From Eubacteriales bacterium (GTDB lineage: Bacteria > Bacillota > Clostridia > Oscillospirales > CAG-272), in the NCBI GenBank assembly GCA_048526005.1, contig DBFVEH010000005.1:2727-66726 (forward strand): 64,000 bases of DNA. The letters are read 5' to 3'. Of the stretch, positions 228 to 49,091 are shown one piece after another. Each line of letters opens with the position of its first letter. Position 1 is the first letter of the stretch. A program made the position numbers and the translations under genes. The notes under the pieces are model-generated. The model searched no databases, was not told where the DNA came from, and saw only the letters and a list, made by a program, of their open reading frames with translations.

Positions 228-752
228 ATGACTACTGGCGAGGAAATCATAACGACGCCGACACATCCGTTCTGGGTACCTGAAAAGGGATGGACAGATG
301 CGATACAACTGCGGGCAGGAGACAGGTTACAGCTACTGAACGGCGAGTATGTCATCATAGAGCAGGTACAGCATGAAATCCTTGAAGATCCAGTGACGGT
401 CTATAACTTCGAGGTTGAGGATTTTCATACATACTTTGTTGGTGAAACGAGTGTGTTGGTGCATAATAGGTGTGATTATCAATCACCTCAAGGTGGTGGG
501 GGAATTACTGATCAAGTTAAAATTGGAAATAAAAATATTACATTTGGACATGGTGGACGTCATTTAGCTGGCTCAGGATTATCTGTGCAACAAGTTAATA
601 ATGCGATTGCTAATGATGTAATATCACGGCCTGCTACAAACGGTATTGTTGGTCATGGAACTGTAACGATTGGGAGTGTAAATATTTATTATGATTATTT
701 TACTCGATCAGACAACTTAATACATATTGGTACATATTACATAAAACCTTAA
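228..752 (+). CDS. Orphan polymorphic-toxin C-terminal cassette: C-terminal half of a Hint (PT-HINT) domain plus an approx 90-aa variable toxin tip
   Basis: Hint-domain hallmarks: TTPTHPFWV...GWTDAIQLRAGDRL...VYNFEVEDFHTYFV...VLVHNRC, ending in the HN+Cys splice-like junction. An unrelated Gly/His-rich tail follows. Composition shifts from moderate GC to AT-rich at about nt 470. Confidence 0.7.
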   Translation: MTTGEEIITTPTHPFWVPEKGWTDAIQLRAGDRLQLLNGEYVIIEQVQHEILEDPVTVYNFEVEDFHTYFVGETSVLVHNRCDYQSPQGGGGITDQVKIGNKNITFGHGGRHLAGSGLSVQQVNNAIANDVISRPATNGIVGHGTVTIGSVNIYYDYFTRSDNLIHIGTYYIKP

Positions 753-932
753 TTACAGTCAAATTACTTTGCAAATCTAATTATTGATATTCTTATGTGT
801 TGTATACAGATAAATGGGCTTCAGAATAGATGTCAGTAATTCGATGAATACATGGGGCTCACCGGGGGAAAAAATATTTTTCCGGTTGTTTCTCTCGGTG
901 TGCCCCACTATATAATAATCAGGGAGGCAATT

Positions 933-5183: not shown

Positions 5184-7013
5184 TTGGAAAATCTTACAAT
5201 TGCTATTATTGACAGCGGAGTAGATAAAATGGACCATTACCGAGGAATATCTATATATTTAGATGATAATACTGGTTCGTATAAAATTTGCGACGATTTC
5301 AATGATCAAAATGGACATGGAACCATTGTTGCTAATATTATAGAATCTCATATTCAATGTGCAGATTTGTTTATTGTAAAGATATTTGGAGATGAAGAAG
5401 AAATAGAAACCGAAAAACTTATCTTTGCTTTGGATTATTTAGCATGTGAAATTCATCCCCAATTGATACATTTAAGTATGGGCGTTTCATTTTGTGATAG
5501 AATTGGGGATTTAAAAGTAATATGCGAAAATTTGGCGAGAGAGGGTACTATCATTATTTCTGCATACGATAATGATGGGTCGCTATCATATCCTGCTGCA
5601 TTTTCATCGGTCATAGGAGTTGAAAGTTCCTCCAAAATTAGAAAAACTACGGAATATTTCTTTTTGCAGGAATCACCAATTAATATTGCGGCAATCGGCG
5701 TAGCACAGAGATTGAAAGGCAAAGAGGATCGATACTTTGATGTTGTAGGTTCAAGCTTTGCTGCGCCATATATAACCGCTATTATCGCAAATATGCTTCA
5801 AAAAGAACAGACCATGCTGTCAATAAAAGAAGTCCTTTTGAAATTACAAGAAAATGCAAAGGAAGTATATACTTATTCGAGAAATTCTCCCATTGAGGGG
5901 TCATTTCCCATTAAATGTGCGATTGTTTTACCATATAATAAAGAAATCAATACTTTGGTTCGTTTTAAAGACGAATTGGATTTTGAATTATTTGGCGTTT
6001 ATGATTTAAAGTTTTTGAATAATATTGGTAAAGAAATTATATTAGAGCAGAAAAGTGTTAAAATTGAGCCGATTGATAAAATTCCGTGGACGGAAGCTTT
6101 TGATACGGTAGTATTGGGACATTTAGAAGAGTTGAACTCTATTTCACACCGAGATTATACAGAAAAAATTGTAAATTGCTGTATTAAATACCGTAAAAAT
6201 CTTTATTCTTTTGACCAATTAAATACGGAGCAGCAAATTCGATTTAAAAATGCTAATCTGAAATTTTTCACGCCAACGATAACAAAAAAGAATGTTCCAT
6301 ATAATCAAGAGGGAAAATTGCGTCAAATTGCGAAGCCCATTTTATGCGTAGCCGGAACATCATCAAAACAAGGAAAATTCAGCCTTCAAATGCGGTTAAA
6401 GAATTCAATGAAAAAGCAAGTTCGCGTTGGAATGCTATCAACAGAGCCTTCAGGATATTTACTTGGAGCAGATGTTGTTTTTCCTGTGGGATATAATTCT
6501 ACTGTTTCCCTTGAAAATGGAGATCAATATATCGCTTCCATTAACGCTGCCATGGGAATGATTGAGGATAAAAATGTTGATCTTATCATTACCGGGCTGC
6601 AATCTCAGACGATTCCAATGAAATTGTGTAATCTTCGAGATATGGTCCTTTGCAATCATTATTGTTTGCTTGGCATTAATCCAGATGTTGTGGTTTTGGT
6701 CGTTAATGTTTTTGACGATTTTGACTATATTAAGAGAACAATTCATTATTTGGAAAATATTATTGTGTGTGATGTCATCTCTATCGTTGTATTTCCAATA
6801 ATGCGAACATTCAAATGGAATACTTTGGGAGATTTATCTGTTCGTTATAACGAAGATGTTTTGCAGGACTTTAAAGAAAGATTGGGCAGTTTTTTAGACA
6901 AACCGATTTTTGTTCTGGACAATGACAAGGACATGGACGCATTGGTTTCTATATGTTTTGGCTATTTTTTGAAGGAAGAAAAAACAATAATGGAGAATTA
7001 TGATGAACAATAG
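5184..7013 (+). CDS. Fusion protein: N-terminal subtilisin-like (S8) serine peptidase + approx 370-aa C-terminal domain of unknown function
   Basis: Asp (IAIIDSGVD), His (NGHGTIVA) and Ser (GSSFAAPYITA) triad motifs are all within the first approx 200 aa. There is no signal peptide. The C-terminal part has a P-loop-like CVAGTSSKQGKFS motif. TTG start at 5184 with GGAGG upstream. Confidence 0.8.
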   Translation: MENLTIAIIDSGVDKMDHYRGISIYLDDNTGSYKICDDFNDQNGHGTIVANIIESHIQCADLFIVKIFGDEEEIETEKLIFALDYLACEIHPQLIHLSMGVSFCDRIGDLKVICENLAREGTIIISAYDNDGSLSYPAAFSSVIGVESSSKIRKTTEYFFLQESPINIAAIGVAQRLKGKEDRYFDVVGSSFAAPYITAIIANMLQKEQTMLSIKEVLLKLQENAKEVYTYSRNSPIEGSFPIKCAIVLPYNKEINTLVRFKDELDFELFGVYDLKFLNNIGKEIILEQKSVKIEPIDKIPWTEAFDTVVLGHLEELNSISHRDYTEKIVNCCIKYRKNLYSFDQLNTEQQIRFKNANLKFFTPTITKKNVPYNQEGKLRQIAKPILCVAGTSSKQGKFSLQMRLKNSMKKQVRVGMLSTEPSGYLLGADVVFPVGYNSTVSLENGDQYIASINAAMGMIEDKNVDLIITGLQSQTIPMKLCNLRDMVLCNHYCLLGINPDVVVLVVNVFDDFDYIKRTIHYLENIIVCDVISIVVFPIMRTFKWNTLGDLSVRYNEDVLQDFKERLGSFLDKPIFVLDNDKDMDALVSICFGYFLKEEKTIMENYDEQ

Positions 7014-8838
7014 AAAAAAGCAACAAAAAGCGTCACATTCTCTTGCGGACAACATTGGATATATATATAAATTACAATGGAAACATAGCCCTCTTTCCTT
7101 GGTATTTCTTGTCCTCACGATACCGGTTTCAATTGGAATTTCCTTTTTGGGAATATATTTGCCAAAGATAGTAGTATCACAGGTAATGAACTATGAGGAT
7201 CTTTACAGTGCACTTTGGCCGATTGTCGTTATTGGGCTTGCGATTTTGGTGTTAACGCTCTTTGAAAAATTAATATCTACAATGAGCTCCGCTTTTTTAT
7301 CAAAATTTAGAGATGCACTTGAAAATATGAAAAACAAAAAATGCCTTAACACAGATTATGAGAATCTTGAATCGCCAAAATTTAGAGTTTTAATGGGACG
7401 GGCAAATGAAGCATTATGGGGCTCCAATATGGGTTCCACGGTAGAACGGATGAGTTCTGGCAGCATTGCTATGATTACAAGCATATTAAATGGGGTTTTA
7501 TTTGGAGCCATATTGACATTTGCAAATCCAATTCTTATTGTGGTATTAATAGCAATTCCGGCTGTTCATTACTATTCACTGAAATGGGTTCAAAAATTTC
7601 AGTATCATTCAAAAGAATTTACTGCACCGCTTGATAAAAAGCTTTGGTATCTTGCGCGAAATGCAAGCCATTATGATGCTGCCAAAGATATTCGCATATA
7701 TAATATGAAAGATTGGCTCCTCAATATGTACCATATGCTGTCGAAAGAAAGACTTTCGTGGGATGTCAAAGTATTCAGAAGACAATTTTTTATCAGTCTT
7801 TTAGATGGTTTTCTTATTTTAATTCGAGATGGCATAGCATACTTTGTTTTAATTATGATGGTGATAAACAATGAAATTGCGATTGATGATTTTGTTTTGT
7901 ATTTTTCCTCTGTAGGGGCTTTTACAGGAACGCTTAGTTCTATTATCAATCAGTTTGCCTCTTTAAATGCAACCAGTCTTATTACTTGTGATTTAAGAGA
8001 TTTTCTGGATTACCCCGAAAAAGAAAATAGCTCAGAAACGGAAGAAAACTATGATTTAAACTCTGTTCATGAAATTAAAGTCAAAAATTTATTTTATTCC
8101 TATCCAGGCGCAGAAAAACCAACCTTATCCAATTTAAACTGTACGATTAAACCGGGAGAAAAAATTGCAATTGTCGGATTGAACGGCGCAGGCAAAACGA
8201 CATTTATAAAATTGCTGACAGGACTGTATACGCCAACATCCGGGAATATTTTGCTGGATGAAATTTCTATTAGCCATTATGAAAAACAGGATTATTATTC
8301 TATGTTTTCTGTGGTTTTTCAAGATCATAAGCTAATGCCGATTTCAATTGTTGAAACCGTTGCATGTACGGAGGCACATCTTGCCAATAGAAATCGAGTA
8401 ATTGAGTGTTTGCAAAAGGCTGAGTTATATGATAAAATTTTAAAATTACCAAATGGGATTGATACACTGATCAATCGCCAAATCAATGAAAATGGCATTG
8501 AACTTTCTGGAGGCGAATATCAAAAATTACTGTTAGCAAGAGCCCTTTATAAAAATTCGTCCATTTTGATTTTGGATGAACCTACAGCCGCAATAGATCC
8601 TATTTCGGAGAGTATTCTTTATAATAAATATAGCGATTTGTTTAAAAATAAAACAGCTATTTTTATTTCACATCGATTAGCTTCGACTCAATTCTGCGAT
8701 CGAATTTTCTATATGCAAAGCGGACAAATTTTAGAAGTAGGCACACATGACGAATTGCTCGCACTAAATGGTGAGTATAAAAGGCTTTATGATGTTCAGA
8801 GTCAATATTACCGTTCAGATGGGGGAGATGCCAAGTGA
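7000..8838 (+). CDS. ABC exporter, fused permease/ATPase subunit (no C39 peptidase domain)
   Basis: N-terminal six-TM-type region. Walker A GLNGAGKTT, signature LSGGEYQK, Walker B ILILDEP. Overlaps the upstream gene by 14 nt. Confidence 0.9.
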   Translation: MMNNRKKQQKASHSLADNIGYIYKLQWKHSPLSLVFLVLTIPVSIGISFLGIYLPKIVVSQVMNYEDLYSALWPIVVIGLAILVLTLFEKLISTMSSAFLSKFRDALENMKNKKCLNTDYENLESPKFRVLMGRANEALWGSNMGSTVERMSSGSIAMITSILNGVLFGAILTFANPILIVVLIAIPAVHYYSLKWVQKFQYHSKEFTAPLDKKLWYLARNASHYDAAKDIRIYNMKDWLLNMYHMLSKERLSWDVKVFRRQFFISLLDGFLILIRDGIAYFVLIMMVINNEIAIDDFVLYFSSVGAFTGTLSSIINQFASLNATSLITCDLRDFLDYPEKENSSETEENYDLNSVHEIKVKNLFYSYPGAEKPTLSNLNCTIKPGEKIAIVGLNGAGKTTFIKLLTGLYTPTSGNILLDEISISHYEKQDYYSMFSVVFQDHKLMPISIVETVACTEAHLANRNRVIECLQKAELYDKILKLPNGIDTLINRQINENGIELSGGEYQKLLLARALYKNSSILILDEPTAAIDPISESILYNKYSDLFKNKTAIFISHRLASTQFCDRIFYMQSGQILEVGTHDELLALNGEYKRLYDVQSQYYRSDGGDAK

Positions 8839-46889: not shown

Positions 46890-47201
46890 ATGGAAACAAT
46901 GAACGGTTACCTCTTCATAGCTGATAACCACATCTTCAATTACGGATTAAAATCCAGAGATATTGCGGTTTACTGTACATTATGCCGTCATCGAAACAAG
47001 GAAGCTGGTGCAGCCTTTCCATCACAAAAAACGATTGCAAAAGAATGTGGAATTGGCAAGGTGGACACTGTGGACAAAGCATTGAGAAAGCTCTGCAAGA
47101 TGGGACTGATCAGCGGGCGACAGCGGAGTTATACGGACGAGCAGTTGGATGAGTTGCTTTCCCGTCAGGCAGGAGCAGCAAAGGTGAAGCGGATCGGATA
47201 A
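46890..47201 (+). CDS. Helix-turn-helix protein, replication-initiator/DnaD-like N-terminal wHTH type (possibly truncated)
   Basis: LKSRDIAVYCTLCRHRNKEAGAAFPSQKTIAKECGIGKVDTVDKALRKLCKMGLI. Followed by a hairpin + T-run at about 47202-47235. Confidence 0.5.
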   Translation: METMNGYLFIADNHIFNYGLKSRDIAVYCTLCRHRNKEAGAAFPSQKTIAKECGIGKVDTVDKALRKLCKMGLISGRQRSYTDEQLDELLSRQAGAAKVKRIG

Positions 47202-47267
47202 AATCAAGGAACCGCTGAGATCCCTTGATTTTTCGGGGGAGATGAGCGTAGGTAAATATAGGATGAA

Positions 47268-47298
47268 ATGGTAAGGGACCACAGCGGTCCCATACCAT
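47268..47298. terminator. Bidirectional hairpin between convergent genes
   Basis: GGTAAGGGACC-acagc-GGTCCCATACC, an 11-bp stem with one mismatch, with T-rich flanks on both strands. Confidence 0.5.
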
Positions 47299-47325
47299 TT
47301 ATTGCACGTTTTTAGAAATTTTGCT

Positions 47326-47508
47326 TTATTTCTTGCTATCATTGTTGCGACTATTCCAATACTTATCATTGTTCGGATTGCACTGGTTTGCATGATTGTC
47401 ATAATTATCTTTGTAGGCACTATTATTGGGATTATGCTGATTTGCATAAGCATCAAGTTCTGTCCTTGTGTGGGTATGTCCGGATACTCCGTGTCCGCCT
47501 TTGCTCAT
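47326..47508 (-). CDS. 60-aa Asn/His-rich protein with tandem ANQxNPNNxxY motif
   Basis: MSKGGHGVSGHTHTRTELDAYANQHNPNNSAYKDNYDNHANQCNPNNDKYWNSRNNDSKK. No hydrophobic segment. Its ATG overlaps the TGA of the upstream nucleotidyltransferase (ATGA). Confidence 0.6.
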   Translation of the reverse strand: MSKGGHGVSGHTHTRTELDAYANQHNPNNSAYKDNYDNHANQCNPNNDKYWNSRNNDSKK

Positions 47509-48173
47509 TTTTGTCTACCTCCATTTCCGTATATTTCATTATAGACTTGATTGACGGCTTCCACATAAACAATAAATGAGGGATGCTCGCAGTCATTTTT
47601 CCTCAAATATAAATTTTTGAGTTTTACGTATCTGTCGCGGACTTCGAGCCACCCGTTTTTATTTTTGATTTTCTTGGACTTTTCCAACACATCATGTGAA
47701 TTGGGGACTTCACACCATGTGTATTGCCCCTGCTTACCGAAAGAATGTTGATTTTTATTATGAATCAGTCGGCAAAGCGTGCCATTGTTGTTTTTTTTTA
47801 CTATGGCAATATCAAAACTAAAATGTTTATTAGGTTCACCCCTGAAACAAAGATTGGATGTTAATACGGAAGTCGAATCTTGTCCATCAGTGAAGAAAGT
47901 ACCGCCGACTACTTGGTTGAGAACCTTCCGGATAGTTTCTTTCAATCTATGCAAATCCATATTCTCAGACAATTTAAGAATTTCAAGATTGTAATCAAGG
48001 TCATACTGACCATTACCGTTTACTGTCACCAGATTTCTTGCACCACTACCTACTAAGGTAAATTGGGTAACAATACCATGTTGCTCTTTCAATATATCGC
48101 TTATCTCAGTAAGAATTGAAGAACAGCAGGAGCGGTATACTTTCACTTCGGATTTATCAACTAATTTGTACAT
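47505..48173 (-). CDS. Minimal Pol-beta-superfamily nucleotidyltransferase (222 aa)
   Basis: LVGSGARN (G42-S43), YDLDYN (D58, D60) and FSFDIAIV (D121) give the hG[GS]-x(9-14)-DxD ... D pattern. GAAGGAGG RBS. Confidence 0.75.
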   Translation of the reverse strand: MYKLVDKSEVKVYRSCCSSILTEISDILKEQHGIVTQFTLVGSGARNLVTVNGNGQYDLDYNLEILKLSENMDLHRLKETIRKVLNQVVGGTFFTDGQDSTSVLTSNLCFRGEPNKHFSFDIAIVKKNNNGTLCRLIHNKNQHSFGKQGQYTWCEVPNSHDVLEKSKKIKNKNGWLEVRDRYVKLKNLYLRKNDCEHPSFIVYVEAVNQVYNEIYGNGGRQK

Positions 48174-48231
48174 AAGTACCTCCTTCTTTTTCCCATGCCT
48201 CCCATTTAGCTGTGCATCGCCAAATCATTAA

Positions 48232-48259
48232 ACTATATCACTTTTTTTGATTTTGTCAA
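48232..48259 (-). promoter_or_regulatory. Promoter of the nucleotidyltransferase module (TTGACA-16 nt-TATAGT)
   Basis: Reverse complement of 48254-48259 is TTGACA, and of 48232-48237 is TATAGT. Confidence 0.55.
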
Positions 48260-48867
48260 GTGCTTTTGAAAAAATATTTTGATAAAATCATTGGGAACAC
48301 CAGCCGACGGGAGGCACTGATGTCAATGTCGATGTATTCCATTTTGTAGGCGAGGGATAGAATGGAACGGAAAACCGTAGCATACCGGCTTGACCGTGCC
48401 GGCTGCCATCTGATCTCCCGGTTTGGCGCGAATATTCTGTCTGCCCTTGGAGATAACAAAGATGATATAGTCCTGCACATGGCGAACACAGAATTCGTCA
48501 AGGTGCATTTTCCCGTAGATCGGGATCAGATGAATCCAAATTATTTTTTGATAAAAGGCGAGGGTGCTCGGCGCAAGATCGTTCTTTTTGATCTCCATAT
48601 ATTTTTCGCAGAAATCCGGAAAAAGCATTTTTCCGGGGGAAGTTGGTACAGAATTCTTGTCGGCGGTACCTGTAAATTCACCGTTTAAGATTTGCACCTC
48701 GGTGGTTTCGATGAAAAAATTGAGTTCTTTTTGCAGTGCCGCATAACTAAGTTCGGTTTGGACGGCTTGAAAATTTTCGATACCGTTTTGTGGTTGCCGA
48801 GATCGTCCCGACCGACAGAAAACCTTACCAGATAAGCGCCGTTCGGCTTTTTTGTGATGCTTGCCAT
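48256..48867 (-). pseudogene. Tyrosine integrase, N-terminal approx 200 codons with at least 2 frameshifts and no catalytic domain
   Basis: Three consecutive frames: MASITKKPNGAYLVRFSVGRDDLGNHKTVSKIF (Arm-type N-terminus); MLFPDFCEKYMEIKKNDLAPSTLAFYQKIIWIHLIPIYGKMHLDEF (SAM-like core-binding); ...YATVFRSILSLAYKMEYID. Adjacent to the tRNA-Pro 3' end. Confidence 0.75.
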
Positions 48868-49015: not shown

Positions 49016-49091
49016 TGGTCTGAGTGACTGGACTTGAACCAGCGGCCTCTACCACCCCAAGGTAGCGCGCTACCAACTGCGCCACACCCAG
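49016..49091 (-). tRNA. tRNA-Pro (anticodon GGG)
   Basis: Hand-folded 76-nt cloverleaf: CTGGGTG-TG-GCGC-AGTTGGTA-GCGC-G-CTACC-TTGGGGT-GGTAG-AGGCC-GCTGG-TTCAAGT-CCAGT-CACTCAG-A-CCA. The C1:G72 pair is typical of bacterial tRNA-Pro. Confidence 0.9.

Follow-up and report, generated by a model that had tools for sequence, protein, structure and literature searches.

The 64,000-nucleotide stretch of a contig from an Eubacteriales bacterium analysed here (the window) contains, at positions 47,326 to 48,259, a two-gene module on the minus strand that encodes a nucleotidyltransferase (NTase) of 222 residues (47505..48173) and an Asn/His-rich protein of 60 residues (47326..47508). The NTase, assigned by family alignment, AlphaFold2 and Foldseek modelling and the PADLOC Cyclase hidden Markov models (HMMs), is predicted to be a minimal enzyme resembling the cGAS/DncV-like nucleotidyltransferases (CD-NTases), and its link to the small protein, whose open reading frame (ORF) is established by a homologue family and a coding-selection test, is probably functional. 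A sigma-70-type promoter lies at 48232..48259 on the same strand, composed of the −35 element TTGACA (48259-48254), a 16-nucleotide spacer containing TG, and the −10 element TATAGT (48237-48232); with 11 of 12 consensus matches and a TG extension it is the top-scoring site of the region. The promoter sequence is kept in a related locus (L001, from position 7897 onward), indicating that it belongs to the conserved module. A ribosome-binding site GGAGG (48179..48183, minus strand) can be read 5 nucleotides ahead of the NTase ATG, and a second GGAGG (47518..47522, minus strand), located 9 nucleotides ahead of the small-gene ATG, is embedded in the Gly-Gly codons at the 3′ end of the NTase gene and serves the small ORF. 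The stop codon of the NTase and the start codon of the small ORF overlap as ATGA at 47505-47508, and the same overlap with embedded ribosome-binding site is found in relatives L001-L008, L093/94, L126, and L133. An earlier note on this DNA had described both genes as intact, with their own promoter, a strong ribosome-binding site and translational coupling; each of these features was confirmed, all of its coordinates are correct, and both genes are conserved in homologues. The terminator that it also proposed stands in part: a 14-bp hairpin (47266..47300, minus strand; about −21 to −22 kcal/mol, z = −3.2) is present 25 nucleotides past the small-ORF stop and is a possible terminator shared with a convergent HTH_36 gene, but it lacks a U-tract, and a rule-based scan calls no terminator for the module. 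An Rfam scan detected no RNA element within the module.

The NTase displays the complete catalytic signature of the Pol-beta superfamily, as the earlier note had proposed, with the hG[GS] motif, the [DE]x[DE] motif and the third carboxylate represented by G42-S43, D58xD60, and D121, respectively. An alignment of 35 homologues shows no variation at G42, S43, D60, or D121 and conservation of D58 at 90% or more, and by these active-site residues the enzyme appears catalytically intact. It belongs to an unnamed family of at least 600 homologues, nearly all of 215–232 residues. Whereas a scan of species-representative genomes with the single sequence gave nothing, an alignment-based scan gave 246 matches, with hosts that are mostly gut and rumen Clostridia and include some Treponema, Bacilli/Mollicutes, and Bacteroidales. 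No significant match to the NTase was found in Pfam, NCBIfam or PHROGs; relaxing the threshold to E ≤ 1 yielded only a chance DUF5101 match in Pfam and nothing relevant in NCBIfam, a library that includes the ANT and Lnu families. No DUF1814/AbiEii match was detected in Pfam, NCBIfam or PADLOC, MNT and RelA-like enzymes did not appear in the family or fold searches, and neither the single sequence nor a profile matched PDB sequences at E ≤ 10. The PADLOC Cyclase models match the window protein weakly (E = 4e-4), and 14 of the 35 family members match the Cyclase models of cyclic oligonucleotide-based antiphage signalling systems (CBASS), the best with E of 3.4e-7.

The AlphaFold2 model of the NTase has a mean predicted local distance difference test score (pLDDT) of 82.6 and a predicted template modelling score (pTM) of 0.80. 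All significant Foldseek matches of this model in the PDB are Pol-beta-fold enzymes, as befits a minimal NTase fold. The best, with E of about 1e-6, are CdnB (7ljo, 8ysc), CdnG, CdnE, and CdnC, followed by cGAS; entries 8hsb and 6p80 are also listed, and together with 7ljo and 8ysc these have E values of 1e-6 to 1e-4 and TM-scores of 0.46–0.56 on the query. The top 24 matches are all CD-NTases or cGAS (E 1e-6 to 6e-4), with TM-scores that are modest, 0.42–0.56 on the query and 0.29–0.41 on the target, for an NTase 70–150 residues shorter than its targets. The top 50 consist of CD-NTases, cGAS and Pol beta, with no ANT, Lnu or MenT/AbiEii enzyme among them, and a search of BFVD gave one uninformative match. 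Membership in a well-characterised family such as the aminoglycoside NTases, which the earlier note had allowed for, therefore finds no support in either NCBIfam or the Foldseek top 50. Its statement that the enzyme is far smaller than cGAS/DncV-like enzymes is borne out, at about 220 residues as against 290–450. The fold and the weak HMM matches predict a minimal CD-NTase-like enzyme, a neighbour of the CBASS CD-NTases and cGAS, and its family is new, a small variant within the CD-NTase/Pol-beta NTase group. It is not called a CBASS member because the defining feature of these systems, partnership with an effector, was looked for in the window and at 80 loci and was not found.

The small protein is very hydrophilic (grand average of hydropathy −1.9) and widespread: an exhaustive profile search recovered 838 representatives at E ≤ 1e-3, and homologues occur at more than 527 metagenomic loci and on 63 viral contigs. 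As the earlier note had pointed out, it contains a GHGVSGHTHT N-terminus (GHGVSGxTHT in the family) and two ANQxNPNN-xx-Y motifs. In 67 unique homologues, positions S9, H13, Y21, Q24, N26, N38, Q42, N44, and N47 do not vary and all but one (66) also have Y50, so that the family motifs can be written as GVSG-x-TH followed by two copies of NQxNPNN. It was rightly described as belonging to no known family, for none was found in Pfam, NCBIfam or PHROGs; a profile search of PDB sequences gave none at E ≤ 10, and no DNA-binding domain of the kind expected in a type II antitoxin was detected in the same three libraries. A literature search on the NPNN motif returned nothing relevant, and no description of either the NTase or the small-protein family was found in the searched libraries or literature. 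The small protein is probably disordered, since the homologous domain in the model of a natural fusion, described below, has pLDDT values of 33–54. Four relatives (P0291, P0299, P0348, and P0379) are repeat-expanded, with 3–4 copies of DNH[AS][ND]Q[LMC]NPNN..Y, indicating that the NQxNPNN unit acts as an independent repeat module. A single-repeat variant, MAKRKGVSGKTHTKQQLNDYANQNNPNNKAY..., with a different C-terminus, is encoded by Dorea phage NatCom_31361, a phage of a cultured host, between the tail genes and the tape-measure gene (L189 2986..3186; PV036443.1 37771..37971). Locus L090 carries two 57-residue ORFs in tandem (357..530 and 673..846), of which the HMM search reported only the first as a small-protein homologue.

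The Asn/His-rich reading of the small gene was examined by codon-position diversity and the share of synonymous changes in the 67 unique homologues. In the sense frame, nucleotide diversity is 0.23 at the first, 0.155 at the second, and 0.52 at the third codon position, and single-nucleotide codon differences are synonymous in 80% of cases in that frame but in 17% in the antisense one, which identifies the Asn/His-rich reading as the gene. An open, strongly hydrophobic ORF of 80 residues does lie antisense to the small gene (window 47302..47544, plus strand), sharing its codon register, and similar ORFs (80–94 residues overall) are found at L097 1811..2068 and L109 3229..3513, both on the minus strand. 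The antisense frame is open in just 37 of the 67 homologues, and the possibility that it is a real gene for a type I toxin-like peptide was excluded by the codon-position test. The hydrophobic ORF is a compositional mirror of Asn, Gln, His, and Asp codons and is not under selection.

The genomic association of the two proteins was assessed in 80 species-level NTase loci, with neighbours considered within 6 kb, and in 88 loci seeded with the small ORF. Of the 80, 11 have the small ORF immediately behind the NTase, and of the 88, about 11 have an NTase immediately ahead of the small ORF, three of these being divergent NTases recognised at E of about 1e-17. The check proposed in the earlier note, whether the small ORF always follows the NTase, has a divided outcome: pairing is seen in a minority of loci, but it recurs, in at least six separate clades of a rough neighbour-joining tree of NTases, and the two proteins are also found as one polypeptide. 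A profile search recovered single-ORF fusions of the NTase and the small domain (P0292, P0324, P0346, and P0352); that of P0292 was verified on its contig DNA, and a search with it found at least 27 clusters of 258–307 residues that cover the fusion at 100%. Two flavours can be distinguished. In flavour (i) the full small domain is present with its Met-Ser/Ala-Lys start still ahead of it, and in flavour (ii) all that remains of it, behind a Lys/Pro/Ala-rich linker, is '...AAEKAARDNRANQLNPNNKAYIGKKKK'. The 24 fusions that were aligned, for which Pfam detected nothing, agree in every catalytic residue and throughout the last A..NQ.NPN core; three positions after the last NPN[NH] all 24 have Tyr or Ser, and the tail is basic, with an isoelectric point of about 10 or more in 23.

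On the tree the two flavours lie apart, with fusions on deep branches and in a separate inner clade, so that fusion appears to have arisen at least twice, and possibly a further time in L112, a fusion known from a single contig that falls within a paired clade. The chromosomal surroundings of flavour-(ii) fusions P0402 and P0414 (L254-L259) are conserved, in the order PRK - mannose-6-phosphate isomerase - ROK kinase - fusion, and no mobile-element or defence genes were found there; the fusions look like a domesticated, stably inherited copy. Retention of the motif in such stable synteny indicates that it is selected as part of the NTase polypeptide. Among the top 150 matches to the small-domain profile, clear fusions to a recognisable enzyme domain occur only with this NTase family. 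Recurrent pairing and fusion, together with the minority status of the pairing, indicate that the functional link between the NTase and the small protein is probably real but facultative; such an optional association with a disordered NQxNPNN protein, in some cases as a fusion, appears to be new.

Apart from the small ORF, the surroundings of the NTase are variable and include serine and tyrosine recombinases, ParB-like methylases, Ku, and others. No recurrent effector was found downstream of the NTase in the 80 loci, and its neighbours in the window are an integrase remnant and the HTH_36 gene. The earlier note had remarked on the lack of a HEPN, AbiEi or membrane partner, and this extends to the relatives: no HEPN gene or domain was found in the window or in NTase relatives, no conserved upstream gene that could correspond to an AbiEi/MenA antitoxin was found at the NTase loci, and no HalA-type membrane partner gene was found beside the NTase. 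In one case the NTase is apparently the sole cargo of a mini-element (about 4.5 kb) that encodes a TnpX-like serine recombinase, and the NTase is present on 12 IMG/VR viral contigs. A collection of 72,556 plasmids gave no match to the NTase or the small protein, and searches of a cultured-phage collection with the two gave just one or two weak matches. A vestigial 'VSG-Y' tail in solitary NTases was considered and rejected, most of these NTases ending 12 residues after the EAVN motif. Homologues P0006, P0008, P0026, P0039, and P0059 (303–311 residues) instead carry a Pro/Lys/Ala-rich linker and another C-terminal domain of about 65 residues, FNC..Q..SK..YD..IS.VA.LACENYSGKK...GN.IY.RI..LLK, for which Pfam gave no match; this alternative add-on suggests that the C-terminus of the NTase serves generally as the place where accessory modules are attached. 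In L021 (about 6645..6840) and L041 (about 6660..6840) another small, acidic ORF, MGKxFxDFEDxDF...DSDGDLMxRMGDNMAMDMDTGD, occupies the position of the Asn/His-rich gene directly 3′ of the NTase, the L021 copy with the same −3 overlap.

The region as a whole is the cargo of a decayed integrative element probably inserted at a tRNA-Pro gene. The tRNA-Pro(GGG) gene (49016..49091, minus strand), just downstream of rplJ/rplL, abuts a tyrosine integrase remnant (48323..48867, minus strand) that retains only the SAM-like N-terminal domain (Phage_int_SAM_3, E 2e-9) and is split over two frames by a one-base indel relative to L001. On the other side of the module lies the replication-initiator-like HTH_36 gene (46890..47201, plus strand), assigned by a Pfam-type domain match and by comparison with intact relatives. 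At the corresponding chromosomal site, marked by rplJ/rplL, MerR, and biotin ligase genes, locus L001 encodes an NTase (P0001) with 91% identity, and the intact order in such a relative is integrase (405 residues) - TnpV - NTase - small ORF - xis-like - integrase (418 residues) - HTH_36. Compared with L001, the window lacks about 1.04 kb comprising the 3′ half of the integrase gene and tnpV (L001 6860-7896) and about 1.8 kb comprising the xis-like gene and the gene of the 418-residue integrase (L001 9067-10862), which in intact relatives separate HTH_36 from the small ORF. The description of the surrounding DNA as decayed mobile DNA is thus upheld by comparison with intact relatives, and the proposal that the module had inserted into, or replaced, the catalytic half of the integrase gene is contradicted by the gene order of these relatives: by alignment, two deletions rather than an insertion shaped this part of the window, and the promoter is native to the module.

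The best explanation of these observations, which as a whole is offered tentatively, is that the module is cargo of the decayed element in which the small protein acts as a C-terminal tail of the NTase supplied in trans, serving as acceptor or primer or else as a tether. The notion of a tail in trans follows from other lineages, in which a flexible Lys-rich linker joins the same module covalently to the C-terminus of the NTase. The NTase would use nucleoside triphosphates to nucleotidylylate a conserved hydroxyl of the tail, or would prime a short chain on it, with Ser9 in GVSG, or the Tyr/Ser located three residues past the last NPN[NH], as candidate acceptors; the modification would switch the activity or partner binding of the tail or of the enzyme. 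Failing this, the small protein could serve as a regulatory tether. The acceptor or primer role draws on the repeated C-terminal fusion, on the selected motif with its adjacent hydroxyl, and on precedents of Pol-beta NTases acting on Tyr. MntA polyadenylylates a Tyr of HepT, in a two-gene form (PMC7641770) and in fused forms (PMC13000451), and HalB, according to a review (PMC13434031, citing Tan et al. 2025), primes poly-dA without a template on its own Tyr. By analogy with MntA/HepT and HalB, nucleotidylylation or priming is the favoured though doubtful mechanism here, and of the three roles put forward in the earlier note nucleotidylylation of the small protein is the most attractive. The two proteins would have to interact, with the tail as substrate or regulator, and a role could lie in fitness of the mobile genetic element (MGE), in defence or in counter-defence. 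The predicted flexibility of the tail would allow it to reach an active site.

Several observations weigh against this explanation. Of the 80 NTase loci, 69 (about 86%) are solitary, a homologue of the small ORF being absent within 6 kb, and most solitary NTases stop right after the last helix without any tail, indicating that the enzyme does not need one. About 87% of small genes in the loci seeded with the small ORF have no NTase. Most fusions have His in place of Tyr21 and Tyr32 and two have lost Ser9, leaving only the position three past the last NPN[NH] with a hydroxyl residue in every fusion, and the AlphaFold2 model of a natural fusion shows no confident docking of its tail (pLDDT 33–54). 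The small gene is, moreover, the last gene of operons in which unrelated nucleic-acid enzymes take the upstream position with spacing as tight as that of the NTase. These upstream partners are an HNH endonuclease of 104–118 residues (gap of 11–16 nucleotides, 17 loci), a Thg1-like protein (−3/+3; PF04446, E 2e-15), an NYN-domain protein (27 nucleotides; E 6e-9), a protein of 370–581 residues (−3/−7), a protein of 325 residues (29 nucleotides), and a PemK-like protein (68 nucleotides); a viral scan for the HNH partner family gave one weak locus. Small proteins are 85–90% identical whatever the partner, and partner types are mixed in the tree, so that there is no sign of partner-specific co-evolution.

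An exchange of partners is evident in a cassette hotspot (L097, L108, L109, L110, and L111) with identical flanks, in which homology resumes 12 nucleotides ahead of the small-gene ATG and the 1.7–2.9 kb upstream are swapped among [HTH + 325 residues], [OLD-like ATPase + HNH], and [RNase III-like + Thg1-like] cassettes. The constant flank holds HipA/HipB-like and S8-peptidase-like genes; L110 2045..3989 is one example of the hotspot. Many small genes stand alone, more than 200 nucleotides from any neighbour, for example behind genes for a phage terminase or an Rpn-like transposase and in the Dorea phage tail module. In L117, L103, L128, L160, and L167 a terminator-like hairpin with a U-run lies within about 25 nucleotides of the small-gene ribosome-binding site with no obvious promoter between them, and stand-alone small genes behind such hairpins may be expressed by read-through or leader-type control.

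The hotspot, with its breakpoint just upstream of the small gene and its swapped cassettes, is what would be expected if the small protein were a promiscuous generic partner and the NTase one client among several, the NQxNPNN motif binding a common hub of the host or the element or damping metal-dependent nucleic-acid enzymes; the small protein would in that case be an adaptor or regulator and not a substrate of the NTase. The tight position behind HNH, Thg1-like, NYN, 370–581-residue, and 325-residue genes, the near-identity of the small proteins across partners and the combination of disorder with conserved short motifs are consistent with such a role. It is hard to imagine, however, one 60-residue protein serving many unrelated folds, and in the sample examined the NTase family alone is fused to the small domain, while many copies of the small gene have no close neighbour at all; this alternative is considered unlikely, though it carries real weight. 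The same breakpoint would also arise if the two genes were independent neighbours, the small gene marking the edge of a cargo hotspot, often without a promoter, the NTase being cargo, and the fusions being by-products of tight spacing. Most NTases and most small genes are indeed unpaired, the internal Met-Ser/Ala-Lys start that simple stop-codon loss predicts is still present in flavour-(i) fusions, and the small gene is common in prophages without an enzyme partner. Mere adjacency is nevertheless difficult to reconcile with fusions whose motif residues have stayed invariant while the proteins diverged deeply (to about 40% identity), with flavour-(ii) proteins that dropped half of the small domain and kept the last motif invariant in stable chromosomal synteny, or with the conserved ATGA coupling, and it is judged distinctly improbable.

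The remaining alternatives assign the module to known functional classes. A toxin-antitoxin or abortive-infection pair, as entertained in the earlier note, would have the NTase as a MenT/AbiEii-like toxin and the disordered small protein as a labile antitoxin, with the fusions autoinhibited in cis. Its location on MGEs, the disorder of the small partner, the toxin-like nature of other partners (PemK, NYN, HNH), the HipA-like and OLD-like neighbours of a defence-island type and the existence of fused NTase-partner toxin-antitoxin systems (PMC13000451) all fit. The proposal is weakened, and now appears very unlikely, by the finding that solitary NTases are the norm (86%), with catalytic residues intact and no conserved alternative small ORF, and that fused NTases are located among housekeeping genes of sugar metabolism with no MGE or defence context; DUF1814/AbiEii, MNT, and HEPN signals are absent from the searches, and the small protein has neither a DNA-binding domain nor partner-specific co-variation. 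Near-identity across partners, the mixing of partner types and the stand-alone copies likewise argue against a classical partner-specific antitoxin. That the NTase is an antibiotic-modifying enzyme carried as resistance cargo, with the small ORF incidental, is suggested by its occurrence as the single cargo gene of very small integrase or serine-recombinase elements and by its position directly after tnpV, which matches the position of catP in Tn4451-type elements. The absence of NCBIfam (ANT and Lnu included) and Pfam matches, a Foldseek top 50 of CD-NTases, cGAS, and Pol beta containing neither ANT nor Lnu, and the absence of the NTase from the 72,556 plasmids render this extremely unlikely, and it leaves the small-domain fusions unexplained. 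A miniature CBASS-like system, in which the small protein would be receptor or effector for a cyclic or linear oligonucleotide synthesised by the NTase, can appeal to the CD-NTase-like fold and the weak Cyclase HMM matches. No Cap-type effector was found within 6 kb in 69 of the 80 loci, and the partner is optional, hydrophilic, without a nucleotide-binding or killing domain and shared with nucleases. This signalling role, also put forward in the earlier note, can be given almost no credence, because its supposed effector is disordered, optional, and promiscuous.

The explanation preferred here, a tail supplied in trans, places the module close to several known systems without equating it with any of them. 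With the CBASS CD-NTases and cGAS the family shares a Pol-beta core, GS...DxD...D, which may likewise be followed by a helical C-terminal lobe. It differs from them in size and, relative to the CBASS enzymes, in lacking effector or Cap2/Cap3/HORMA genes, in being mostly solitary on small integrative elements and prophages, and in having an optional disordered C-terminal module. The type VII toxin-antitoxin system MNT-HEPN (MntA/HepT) likewise has a small Pol-beta NTase beside, or fused with, its partner, and HepT is (oligo)adenylylated on Tyr (PMC7641770, PMC13000451); here, however, the NTase is CD-NTase-like rather than MNT, and the partner is an optional, disordered protein of 60 residues instead of a HEPN RNase with its Rx4-6H motif. 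Synthesis by the Hailong NTase HalB on a Tyr of its own chain, as described in the review (PMC13434031, citing Tan et al. 2025), is a precedent for a C-terminal tail as primer. The window locus differs from Hailong in that it has no gene for a HalA-type membrane channel and in that the tail is a separate conserved motif protein; the NTase profile found no HalB match at E ≤ 10 in the PDB copy, in which HalB chains are assumed to be included, and no entry labelled HalB or Hailong is among the Foldseek top 50. The Panacea (PanA) antitoxin domain, reportedly described by Kurata et al. in 2022, is said to be a hyper-promiscuous small module found beside, and sometimes fused to, unrelated toxin-like enzymes. 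The module described here would resemble it as a conserved small module associated with many unrelated enzymes and sometimes fused, but is disordered, about 60 residues long and without partner-specific divergence, and most of its enzyme partners also occur alone.

CD-NTases and cGAS form the core of a conserved immune signalling logic, and to our knowledge the known bacterial CD-NTases work with an effector. The family described here is large (at least 600 proteins, 246 species-level genomes), about 30% smaller than known CD-NTases, mostly solitary and MGE-borne, and its only recurrent partner is a disordered motif protein to which it is sometimes fused. The gene of that protein, for which there are 838 representatives and 63 viral contigs, is likewise abundant on MGEs and unannotated. 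Should the tail serve as acceptor or primer, protein-directed nucleotidylylation of the kind carried out by MntA/HepT and HalB would extend to the CD-NTase branch. If it is instead a recruitment or regulatory motif, it would be a common handle of several unrelated nucleic-acid enzymes of gut phages and integrative elements. A broader and quite improbable reading is that the GVSG/NQxNPNN protein is a portable disordered acceptor or primer loaded by the nucleotide-transfer enzymes of MGEs, CD-NTase-like and perhaps Thg1-like, with HNH and NYN proteins processing the product; it would define a new class of conflict or signalling systems based on protein-nucleic-acid conjugates in gut Firmicutes and their phages.

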